Source: Laetmonice hystrix (taxonomy: Eukaryota). Taken from it: 64,000 nt of DNA. Below the pieces are notes generated by a model, which had not been told where the DNA came from, did not search any database, and was given only the letters and a program-made list of their open reading frames with translations. The translations under genes and the position numbers were made by a program. Position 1 is the stretch's first letter. Each line of letters begins with the position of its first letter. Location of the stretch: positions 8,620,001 to 8,684,000 of the forward strand of contig OZ249436.1 of the NCBI GenBank assembly GCA_965235115.1, written 5' to 3'. Shown in pieces: positions 29,258 to 41,500 of this stretch.

Positions 29258-29305
29258 CTACACACGATCACAGTGAACCTTGAGAAGTCCGCGTGGTTGA
29301 TCAAC
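29258..29305 (-). CDS. GFPT: GFAT alternative (distal) last exon with a divergent C-tail
   Basis: Strong acceptor GTTTTCTTTGTTCCGTTATTGTAG| followed by VDQPRGLLKVHCDRV*, homologous to the proximal last exon [14 protein letters not shown] at 35569-35525. Confidence 0.7.
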   Translation of the reverse strand, partial: VDQPRGLLKVHCDRV

Positions 29306-29865
29306 CTACAATAACGGAACAAAGAAAACACACTGTCACAAACGGCCTGCGGACAATGTTAGTGTCACCCTTCTCCTACTTTACCCATTGCTTTAACGAA
29401 TGACGACAGAACAAAACATCTGATAACACTTGTTACCATAGTCTGACCGTAGTATCTTTCTTAGCTCCTGAGTCTTGAAAACACACATTTATTTATTATT
29501 CCGGCATGGTGTAATTTTTATAAGAATTCACCTGTACATTGACCATTGTCATCCAACTACATAATATACATGAACAATATGACCATAATATACATGAACA
29601 AAAACAAACATTGCCAATCTAAACTACGCAGGCAACATGCAACTACATGCTTTACTCCCTGTGACTACAGACAACCCCCTTTCCCATGCTCACCTCCATG
29701 ATTTACATCAGTTATGCAAAACATAGAAGTGTCAACGCCTTAAAAAATAATCAAGGTTTCTCACACCAACCAATGTAATGGTATGTGGGAAGTTCAGTAC
29801 TGTGAAGTAATCCAAACCCTTTTTGGGTATGGGAGAAGAAATACGAAGAGAGATAAGGACAAAAA

Positions 29866-38500: not shown

Positions 38501-41500
38501 TCTATCTCCTGGGATTGGTGTGGTGTGGGGGAGGTACATGGACAGGAGGACCCTGCTACACCATGGAGGAGCCTGTATCAGATGTGAAAATGAGAGAGGG
38601 CATTTACAACCTTGTTTTTTCGTTTCTGTGGTTTAGAGCATGGAGAACCAACAGAAATGTACGCCTATCACCAAACTTGTATGTTAAAATTTTGAAACAG
38701 AATCAGGGTCAACCAGGGTAGTTTGCTTGCGTCCTCCTGCCCAATGTCCCAACCCCTTGAGTGCCCGAGGACTCAGACGTTTGACACCCGCTGAAGTTCC
38801 TGAAAGAGAAGTCGTCAGGTGAGTTGTCCCCCACAAGGCGACATAAGCCGAGACAGGGGTTGACTGTTAGCCTAACGAGCCAGGCTAACCGACAAGCAGA
38901 AAGGTTCACAAAGATGCTTACATCACACTTCCTCATTTCAGCTATGTGCATAGACAATAACTGCATGGGGATTATGGTAAGGATCCCCTGCAAGGCATCC
39001 ACCGAGGTCGGAACATCCAACACAGCAGCCGAGTCACTAGCATGCTTTCTCGTCTCGTCATCACCTTTGTTGCATACAATGATGGGTTGGCCCTAGAAAT
39101 ACAATCACCACAATGCCTGAAATGTATCGATTTGACAACACAAATTCTACTAATTAGAAGCAAATAGAAAAGATTTCACTATAATTTTGACTTGAAATTC
39201 ACTCTGAATGAACTTTCTTTGATAGATAATCAAGGTTATGTCAGACAATAGCAATAATGAGGTTTACCATCTTTCTTGTCATAACTGACACGTACATCTA
39301 CAGTTACAGCAATCTTGACGGTTCAAAATAATAATTCATGCTTTCATACATGCTAATTAATATGACCAATCGTTAATTTTGAATTTGTCACCCAACTATG
39401 ATAAAGTATTTTAAACAATTTTCTTGTTGTAAAAAAAAAAAAATTAAAACGCAATCGTGTGTACGATCCTTAGAAGGAATATACCTGAACCTGATAATTT
39501 TATATTACGAACAAAAGCAATCATTCATATTTCACTTGATTCAAGTGTCAATGACATGACCGATATATACTACGGTATTTTGAAATGGGTGCCTCGTAGT
39601 CATAAATAATATCATTATGTCTTTTAAATAAAATAACGTATTTTCAACATTCCTGAATTTCTACTTACGTGTTGAAAATAATGAAGCAGTGCTATTACCA
39701 TTTATCAAAATATATCCTGGTATAGCTGCACAACACAGTGACATGCAGTGCCACATATTCAAACAGTCGCTAAAACAGTGCTATCCATGCAGTGATAGAT
39801 ATATTGATGAGATGAGTACTCACTTACAAATATTTTCATTACATGACGGTAGGCAAATTAACTTTTACGGTCAAGATCTGTTATATATTTAATTTCTTTT
39901 TTCCCCTATTCCTTTTCAAGAACAAATTTTTAACTTTTTACACAACCATATTCAGTTGACTACTACATAAAATATTTTCATTATATTAAAGAGTGCAAGA
40001 TGCTGAAACCAAAAGGTTTTTATTAGCCTACGACAGCCAACATTATGGTATACATGTACCTGTACACCACACAATTAGGTTTCAATATTAATACAGAGAG
40101 AACTATTGGACTTATGCCTCATTCAATGAAGGTAGATTGGGTTGAGATAATATAGCAAAGATGTCGCTTGCACACTTACATGTCTGGCCTTTACCTGCTC
40201 CAAGGCATTCATACATTTCTGAAAAAATGAAGTTATTCTGTATAAGCAATAATAAATATACACTTAAAATCATTCAGACTTTCCCTGTGTGCATCATTCT
40301 GCACGTCATAGAAACACTTATATTCGCCTACGCCAAGAACACAAATCAAACCTGTTTTGACATCTGATATTTGATTAAATGCATCCATGAAATCGACCCA
40401 GGAATATATCGACTTCTAATGAAAAATTGAATCCCTATTGCCCACATTACATGGTGACATCATAGCCTGGGCCCCAGGGGGATGACGTAGGCTGTAAACC
40501 AGTTCTAATTCCCAATTCCGTTCATAGATGTCTCTGCTGATAAAGTCGAACGACCAGTAGCGACCTCTATGAGCGGAAATGGTCATGAAAACCGTGATAA
40601 GATGGCCGGATCAAGTGCCGTACCGGGTAGACGGGGTCCCTGGTGACAATCATAATGACTGGCATGGCTTTGTCCACTAACGCCAGGGGGCCGTGCTTCA
40701 GCTCGCCCGCCAGGATTCCCTCCGAGTGCATGTACGTCAGTTCTTTGATCTTCAGCGCCCCCTCGAGACAAGTGGCGTAGTTATAACCACGACCCATGAC
40801 GAGAAGCGACCTCTGCTGGTATAGTTCTCGGGACAATTCCTTTATCTGATCATCCATGGTCAAAACCTCTTTGATTTGCTCTGAAATGAGTAAATATTAC
40901 AAAGCCATGTACATTTGTGTTGGACACATTTAAATATCGGGAATTTTACCACTAGTAAATGATTAGATCAAGATATTATAAAGGGGAGTTGGGGCTGCTC
41001 ACCTGGTAGACTTTGATCAAGATATTATAAAGGGGAGTTGGGGCTGCTCACCTGGTAGATTTTGATCAAGATATTATAAAGGGGAGTTGGGACTGCTCAC
41101 CTGGTAGACTTTGATCAACATATTATAAAGGGGAGTTGGGGCTGCTCACCTGGTAGACTTTGATCAAGATATTATAAAGAGGAGTTGGGACTGCTCACCT
41201 GGTAGACTTTGATCAAGATATTATAAAGGGGAGTTGGGGCTGCTCACCTGGTAGACTTTGATCAAGATATTATAAAGGGGAGTTGGGGCTGCTCACAGGT
41301 AGACTTTGATCAAGATATTATAAAGGGGAGTTGGGGCTGCTCACCTGGTAGACTTTGATCAAGATATTATAAAGAGGAGTTGGGGCTGCTCACCTGGTAG
41401 ACTTTGATCAAGATATTATAAAGGGGAGTTGGGGCTGCTCACCTGGTAGACTTTGATCAAGATATTATAAAGGGGAGTTGGGGCTGCTCACCTGGTAGAC

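Follow-up and report, generated by a model that had tools for sequence, protein, structure and literature searches.

We examined a 64,000-nt stretch of the genome of Laetmonice hystrix (contig OZ249436.1, positions 8,620,001 to 8,684,000; hereafter the window), the minus strand of which carries a gene for GFAT, the entry enzyme for amino-sugar and chitin-precursor synthesis. We consider it likely that this single gene bears, at its 3' end, an ancient splicing module that operates in two steps: a choice between two alternative penultimate exons, A and B, and then the inclusion or skipping of a short cassette, T1, spliced onto a terminal exon, T2. In the first step, one of the two paralogous phase-0 exons would be chosen, either of which would complete the second SIS subdomain with its last strand and helix. 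In the second step, T1, which carries the canonical C-terminal loop (C-loop) and a stop codon, would be included and joined to T2, such that T2 remains untranslated in the 3' untranslated region (UTR) and the canonical enzyme is produced. Alternatively, T1 would be skipped and T2 read in frame, giving a different C-loop (VDQPRGLLKVHCDRV) in which the catalytic lysine is kept and the residues surrounding it are replaced.

The GFAT gene spans 35485..60647 on the minus strand. GFAT proteins used as tBLASTn queries (P0006, P0026, and P0003) aligned with collinear coding exons running from 60647 down to 35528 at 44–100% identity, and Pfam SIS matches of the exon translations scored 67.4 and 53.9 bits (cut-off 25). 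Collinearity over the whole length, together with the SIS domains, places the gene in the GFAT/GlmS family. When the organism's own genome (627 Mb, 35 contigs) was searched with exon A, exons A and B were the only matches, and the best-conserved GFAT exon (40627-40875) had a single match, namely itself. The locus is thus the sole GFAT match of the genome and, with one GFAT gene present, all GFAT diversity of the organism must therefore arise from it.

Upstream of the alternative exons lies a constitutive exon (40180..40224, minus strand, mapped by tBLASTn), the donor of which would feed either A or B. Exon A (38922..39092, minus strand; 171 nt, 57 aa) is a divergent penultimate coding exon of a lophotrochozoan type, and exon B (38265..38426, minus strand; 162 nt, 54 aa) is the canonical one. 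The two are separated by an intron of 495 nt, translate without stops, and are both of phase 0-0; each is preceded by an AG acceptor, opens with a whole Gly codon, closes with a whole Asp codon, and is followed by a GTAAGC donor. At the protein level they are 56% identical (BLASTP E 5e-25), and identical residues of GFAT query proteins match both in tBLASTn. A and B are therefore adjacent, homologous, alike in length and phase, and equipped with splice sites of their own, which is the anatomy of a mutually exclusive exon (MXE) pair. Exon B is 74–76% identical to the GFATs of many phyla and gave a weak Pfam SIS match (profile positions 82-130 of 131). In the alignment, A differs from B mainly at Arg2, at the aromatic residue before His, at Val after Ala, and at the last three residues. 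We found no known mechanism that would enforce exclusion: inclusion of both exons keeps the frame, and the 495-nt intron is not too short. Inverted repeats within 38100-40300 were only short and weak; across five A-B loci, no k-mer of 9-12 nt was common to at least four, and no complementary 9-mers were common to at least two.

RNA evidence came from four sequencing runs of one study, none with a recorded RNA label, the contigs of which were compared with positions 34700-40300. Runs X1-X3 behave as DNA and give continuous contigs. Run X4 (58 million letters) behaves as RNA, although its contigs cannot show the absence of B or T2 use. One X4 contig joins 39091 to 40179 (CT..AC, cut +1; depth 27.8), that is, the upstream exon at 40180 is spliced to A at 39092; the loose end of this contig matches, by reading, the reverse complement of the preceding exon at ~40627. 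Another contig joins 35567 to 38920 (CT..AC, cut +2; depth 6.8), splicing A (38922) to T1 (35569) and leaving out 3352 nt that contain exon B. Both skipped stretches are bounded by CT..AC on the plus strand and hence by GT..AG when read along the gene. Exon A is used in this organism, an A+T1 mRNA is made, and B can be skipped. The earlier note, drawn up from the sequence alone, had described A and B as intact paralogous alternatives of phase 0-0 with GTAAGC donors; its coordinates proved exact, and the open frames and 56% identity bear it out. Its worry that no RNA might include exon A is answered by the X4 contigs, which splice A at both ends. The mutual exclusion that it had proposed would fit an X4 contig that joins A to T1 over B and isoforms of relatives that contain one exon or the other; no B mRNA was seen among the X4 contigs.

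Two tails can follow the penultimate exon. T1 (35485..35569, minus strand) is a proposed 85-nt cassette, identified by tBLASTn, the X4 joint, and a candidate donor; its coding part (35569-35525, with the stop at 35527-35525) is preceded by ...ttgtag. T2 (28150..29305, minus strand) comprises an alternative C-loop segment at 29305-29258, which reads VDQPRGLLKVHCDRV followed by a stop and is preceded by ...ttattgtag, together with a proposed shared 3' UTR; the segment was recognized by translation, motif, and homologues, and its likely 3' end was placed by an AATAAA at 28172-28167. Both acceptors are pyrimidine-rich and end in AG. The canonical C-terminus ..KSVT[VT][EQ] is present in T1 and not in T2 (..KVHCDRV), and the position of the catalytic lysine is occupied by Lys in T1 (..NLAK) as well as in T2 (..LLK). 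A T2 family motif, [VT]D.PR.LLK, had its sole match in the six frames of the window at T2, and was met in none of 200 mononucleotide shuffles of the window (0/200), from which the chance estimates for both tail motifs were taken. A looser tail motif matched T1 and T2 only; 0.525 matches per window are expected for it by chance, so the position, strand, and acceptor of T1 and T2 count as well. With this motif result and with homologues among proteins and loci, the suggestion that T2 is a real alternative coding end at 29305-29258 is supported.

To place T1 and T2 relative to each other, we turned to relatives. A metagenome scan matched 285 stretches, of which 91 were confirmed and the best 80 kept as loci (L003-L082); locus counts refer to these 80. 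Eleven of them are spliced transcripts in which A runs directly into T1, several with open reading frames (ORFs) of 689-707 aa. In nine of the eleven, a T2-type sequence with a stop of its own begins 59-90 nt past the start of T1, or 14-45 nt beyond the T1 stop. The base ahead of T2 is G in all nine, and an AG stands ahead of it in only one; by contrast, AG precedes T2 in 26 of 26 genomic copies (25 metagenome loci and the window). Because T2 follows without AG in eight of these nine transcripts and with AG in every genomic copy, the T1-T2 boundary is an exon-exon junction and not an internal acceptor. The junction is thus seen in the transcripts of relatives; in the window there is only a candidate donor. 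A single donor candidate in the window, AGG/GTAAAG, lies within 150 nt of the T1 start and reaches a consensus score of 6 of 9 or better; cut between 35485 and 35484, it gives an exon of 85 nt that ends 40 nt beyond the stop. Similar G/GTAA(A/T) donor candidates follow T1 in L053, L004, and L044. A stop codon less than ~50 nt before the last junction escapes nonsense-mediated decay, and the stop-to-junction distances (14-45 nt in relatives, 40 nt in the window) are under ~50 nt, which fits such an escape. T1 is probably a short internal stop-bearing cassette that is spliced onto T2, rather than a last exon. We therefore depart from the earlier note, which had taken T1 for the proximal last exon, in view of the nine of eleven transcripts that run from T1 into T2 and of a window donor that fits them. 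For L. hystrix itself, we infer use of the T1 donor, skipping of T1, and usage of B.

T2-type sequences were found in 34 of the 80 loci, and the lysine is kept in 34 of 35 T2 copies, the exception being L043 (..PLK). Over the first 12 codons of 28 unique sequences pN/pS was 0.18, and it was 0.27 for the T2 copies that lie in the 3' UTR of A+T1 transcripts; these values are biased, as the copies were found by a motif fixing five residues, the pairs are non-independent, and pS is near saturation. The pattern points to T2 as an old, selected, and conserved alternative coding end.

Several observations weigh against the proposed module. The T1 donor of the window, which agrees with the consensus at 6 of 9 positions, is only moderately strong, and the X4 contig over T1 ends in a masked GA-rich stretch (35487-35518) that is uninformative on the proposed donor. 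Most of the 3' flank of T1 is likewise uncovered in X4, a gap from which we draw no conclusion. No T1>T2, A>T2, upstream>B, or B>T1 junction was seen in the contigs of X4, a small run and the only one to be informative, in a comparison with 34700-40300, outside which the T2 stretch lies. Exon B was found in X4 only on an unspliced contig (38287-38501, depth 4.9) that extends 75 nt into the upstream intron. Two of the eleven spliced transcripts (L009 and L059) are without T2 after T1, and many genomic A-T1 loci are without T2 up to as much as 8.5 kb past T1 (L018); in the genes of some relatives, T1 can be a true last exon. These cases speak for an alternative in which T1 and T2 are independent last exons, each with a cleavage/poly(A) site of its own, and T2 is reached only when both the T1 acceptor and the T1 poly(A) site are bypassed. 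Consistent with that alternative, neither L018 nor L025, a further A-T1 locus without T2, has a donor of at least 6 of 9 after T1, and the gap between T1 and T2 in the window measures 6.2 kb and holds a 4.7-kb minisatellite.

Nevertheless, we judge independent last exons to be unlikely. Nine of the eleven spliced A+T1 transcripts carry T2 after T1 at a junction from which the genomic AG is missing. Genes that keep both T1 and T2 are the proper comparison for the window, and the window donor lies at the expected distance past the stop. Furthermore, RNA-like X4 contains much of the T2 region, as judged by word share only: 0.64 of the sampled words of 28000-29860 are present in X4, and T2 with a UTR up to the AATAAA would make up about 62% of that stretch. 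This is a hint only, and it is weakened further in that the share could stem from another transcript, for example the 3' UTR of a neighbor gene (ORFs at 18996-24975).

The minisatellite in the proposed intron between T1 and T2 (29866-34623) consists of 109 copies of a 44-bp unit with 96% matches (Tandem Repeats Finder score 8774). Its GC content is 0.60 and its GC skew 0.61, and it is C-rich on the transcribed strand. On that strand, each 44-bp unit reads as a long C-rich pyrimidine run and then ..CAG TCAG AGACAG, so that the array resembles ~109 tandem decoy acceptors or poly-C-binding sites; the units are dissimilar to the real T1 and T2 acceptors. Further minisatellites occur at ~43030-44470 and 49433-50945.

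The two penultimate exon types differ in their distribution. Matches to exon B, up to 76% identical, come from GFATs of all animal phyla. A-like exons, 53–67% identical, occur in Ridgeia piscesae (a tubeworm), Pinctada imbricata (a pearl oyster), a scallop isoform X3, and many oyster isoforms; no protein in the protein search was 100% identical to exon A or B. A profile built from eight A-type exons (A1) extended the A type to clams, abalones, a periwinkle, Aplysia, Biomphalaria, a chiton, an octopus, an argonaut, Lingula, and a leech. Among the sequences collected here, the A type appears only in molluscs, annelids, and a brachiopod, and B is the pan-metazoan canonical type. A search of a representative library with the A profile returned 1020 matches at E <= 0.001; most of the 150 listed were short exon-sized fragments, and we set this search aside.

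A tree was then built from 44 rows: 39 hand-picked named proteins, each standing for one species or gene (three of them gave both exons), and the window's A and B; Elysia crispata P0143 and redundant isoforms were left out. All 24 A rows, including the window's A, fell on one side of a branch with support 98/94, a separation to be read with reserve, as the A/B labels were set from one alignment column and the alignment is just 54 columns long. The window's A and B were each closest to annelid rows. Over the part of the C-terminal region printed ahead of this exon, Lingula X3 (A) does not differ from X8 (B), which fits an origin from a single gene. The A and B proteins of Nucella differ upstream, which points to two genes behind them.

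Combinations of penultimate exon and tail were tallied among 241 proteins: 138 were B+T1, 56 A+T1, and 5 A+T2, two carried T2 with an unclassified penultimate exon, and none was B+T2. The two unclassified proteins (octopus and argonaut) have, by eye, an A-type exon, such that T2 occurs only with A, in 7 of 7 proteins (P0006, P0157, P0166, P0170, P0179, P0190, and P0231). Of these seven, P0157 is a transcript-length Logan protein (690 aa), P0170 is a JGI protein, and the other five are RefSeq X-isoforms, which are predictions and carry correspondingly less weight. B+T2 was never seen among the 241 proteins, although a count of 0/155 overstates the coupling, as most B-type proteins come from phyla that perhaps have no T2. 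Most proteins with an A exon end in T1, and it is this A+T1 combination that was observed as a splice product in L. hystrix. The earlier note had suggested a coupling of A with T2 and of B with T1, as well as up to four C-termini. The restriction of T2 to A survives (7/7, with no B+T2), and that of A to T2 does not (56 A+T1 proteins and the X4 splice); the number of C-termini falls short of the suggestion, with three documented among relatives.

Gene architecture among the metagenome loci was similarly varied. L053, a 21.9-kb contig, shows the window's order, A-B-T1-T2; L004 and L044 show A-B-T1, and L039 shows A-B. Many loci have A and then T1 without B or T2 (e.g. L018), and others have A and then T2 without B or T1 (e.g. 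L070 and L041), with intact upstream GFAT exons. A-T1 and A-T2 loci share a contig-name prefix in at least four record sets (L011/L023, L007/L047, L006/L049, and L027/L070), which looks like two paralogous genes in such relatives, each fixed for one tail. Separate A-T2 genes in relatives would lend independent support to A+T2 as a working protein. A second duplicated exon pair (KIKEL(T/A)YMHSEG..) was noted in L053 (7531-7689 and 8342-8470) and L044 (300-494 and 1549-1731) and is a candidate for a further mutually exclusive pair. In the window, the KIKEL-type exon is single and fused within a larger exon, and it has one match in the organism's own genome.

Losses of this kind in relatives bear on whether the whole module is in use in L. 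hystrix. Individual genes of some relatives no longer contain B, T1, or T2, only the upstream>A and A>T1 junctions were seen here, and B was seen only unspliced, all of which would suit a gene in which B, T2, or both are unused relics and only A+T1 mRNA is made. We hold this to be quite improbable. The reading frames of B and T2 are open, both exons are bounded by whole codons, and their AG acceptors are rich in pyrimidines; B is 74–76% identical to canonical GFATs, and the T2 motif was absent from all 200 shuffles. Moreover, this is the only GFAT gene of the genome, and contigs cannot show that a form is absent. Inclusion of A and B in one mRNA, with a duplicated SIS2 end as in database models of 740-823 aa, would keep the frame (both exons are multiples of three and of phase 0) and is depicted, A then B, in GenBank models of Ridgeia (P0003), Pinctada (P0004), and Elysia (P0143 and P0144), but we regard it as very nearly negligible, given that all four models are genome-derived 'hypothetical protein' entries, one with non-homologous filler into T2 and another with an intron-like end, that none of the 11 spliced transcript loci (retrieved by A-type patterns) or of the inspected transcript-length Logan proteins holds both exons, and that an X4 contig joins A to T1 over B. 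The four models that chain A and B (692-823 aa) are most likely mis-annotations of a mutually exclusive pair.

Having set these alternatives aside, we return to the two-step module and to what its exchanged parts would do in the protein. Against the human GFAT-1 chains in the PDB (687 residues), exon B aligned with residues 620-673. We took these as native residues 614-667, on the assumption that an internal His6 tag (PMC7000685) adds six; the last exon then corresponds to residues 668-681. In the same source, the C-loop is assigned to residues 670-681 and described as a cover over the sugar pocket that is kept in place by the glutaminase domain, through Tyr35, Trp96, and backbone bonds to Tyr32 and Arg33; tags at the termini interfere with GFAT activity (PMC7000685). 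The UDP-GlcNAc contacts listed there (residues 310, 343, 355, 447, 458, 461, and 463; PMC7000685) are all outside exon A/B. By this correspondence, T1 and T2 would each encode the C-loop that caps the sugar site. Lys603 (E. coli numbering) is named as a catalytic residue in PMC9272926. T2 retains this Lys and the preceding PR, and alters the canonical N, A, S, V, T, V, and E around the Lys. The T2 family follows the pattern ..PR-x-L-L-K-[VTI]-[YH].., in which Leu replaces the canonical Ala and Tyr/His replaces the canonical Val. For comparison, 101 of 112 fetched GFAT proteins of at least 500 aa end in SVTVE.

In E. coli GlmS, the wall of the ammonia channel presumably includes the canonical Ala and Val positions that are replaced in T2. 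To go by the title of Mouilleron et al. 2008, an ordered C-terminal loop is reportedly linked to ring opening and channel formation. Because the C-loop both closes the sugar site and couples it to the glutaminase domain, the T2 isozyme is likely to be altered in this closure and in this coupling. We put forward more tentatively, as a possibility and not as our expectation, that A+T2 forms an isozyme with a biochemistry of its own, dating back to the common ancestor of molluscs, annelids, and brachiopods, and that the swap re-tunes or uncouples ammonia transfer and sugar-site closure. If so, A+T2 might show an altered glutamine dependence or act as a regulatory subunit in mixed oligomers, and it would have been important enough for some annelid-like lineages to fix A+T2 as a gene of its own.

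The exons themselves are already present in databases. RefSeq-predicted GFAT isoforms (Pecten X3, Mercenaria X3, Babylonia X2, Octopus X2, Magallana gigas X1-X8, and Lingula anatina X3/X8) contain orthologous A/B exons and T1/T2 tails. However, these are automatic predictions that have not been described, and neither the T1 cassette ahead of T2 nor the sharing across phyla is apparent from them. Splice-dependent tuning of a metabolic enzyme is familiar from mammals: GFAT1-L is a muscle splice variant that gains an insert between the domains and has no exchanged C-terminus, and PKM1/PKM2, which are unrelated in sequence to GFAT, form the textbook MXE pair that changes enzyme regulation. These two systems resemble the present one in that a rate-controlling metabolic enzyme is tuned by a splice swap of one internal segment.

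Closer to home, the single-copy GFAT of crustaceans is reported in a review (PMC8002005) to have many splice variants, and PMC10379218 reports an MXE event in shrimp GFPT2 under heat stress. The likeness is that one invertebrate GFAT gene is diversified by splicing, a mutually exclusive pair included; the difference is that the exons involved are unnamed in the text, and that the arthropod proteins we fetched are all B-type with T1 tails. Vertebrates and Drosophila have GFAT1/GFAT2 paralogue pairs, described in PMC8834284 as two enzyme forms with complementary expression. Some of the metagenome relatives likewise have separate A-T1 and A-T2 genes, but GFAT1 and GFAT2 paralogues all keep a ..KSVTVE end, whereas here the splicing of one gene reaches the catalytic C-loop. 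Differential splicing of oyster gfpt1 is mentioned in a list. A full-text literature search returned no paper describing a GFAT C-terminal module, the nearest being these oyster, shrimp, and crustacean reports. The question that the earlier note had left open, whether the arrangement had been described, thus has a divided answer: the isoforms are already listed in RefSeq for molluscs and a brachiopod, and the literature search found no paper on the module. Ordinary splicing devices are seen here at an unexpected site, the catalytic C-loop of a near-invariant enzyme.

The C-terminal loop of GFAT is among the most invariant parts of the enzyme, and the module can replace this lid of the active site. 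The alternative loop would be a selected, natural one, retained within a single large clade of animals over hundreds of millions of years and made by skipping a stop-bearing mini-exon. It would offer a ready-made experiment on how the loop controls catalysis and the flux into UDP-GlcNAc and chitin. One and the same pair of products would come from splicing in some lineages, where others rely on two genes. The module also accounts for annotated 'hypothetical' GFAT models of 740-823 aa, in which A and B are wrongly strung together.

Other features of the window were recorded alongside. At the 5' end of the mapped gene, the first GFAT exon opens with ..GIFAYLNY behind an AG acceptor, and the Met-Cys codons, which supply the N-terminal nucleophile Cys, must lie on an exon further upstream; the GATase_2 score on one 44-aa exon was 17.8 bits, under the Pfam cut-off. 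At ~60615-60745 (minus strand), the acceptor and the first ~28 nt of this first mapped exon are tandemly doubled (..gtgctgtgttttgtgtctttgatag/GAATATTCGCCTACCTGAAC..). A region within the B-T1 intron (36196-36569) had a summed contig depth of 1,789-30,762 in the DNA-like runs, compared with ~30-55 in the flanks, and many loose ends; it is a high-copy repeat or a transposon fragment. A convergent neighbor gene lies on the plus strand at 18996-24975, with ORFs of 1619 aa and 284 aa that are Ser/Lys/Pro-rich and contain a GNKGHSDTS repeat, and its 3' UTR could approach the T2 region. The GC content of the window is about 0.40-0.48.

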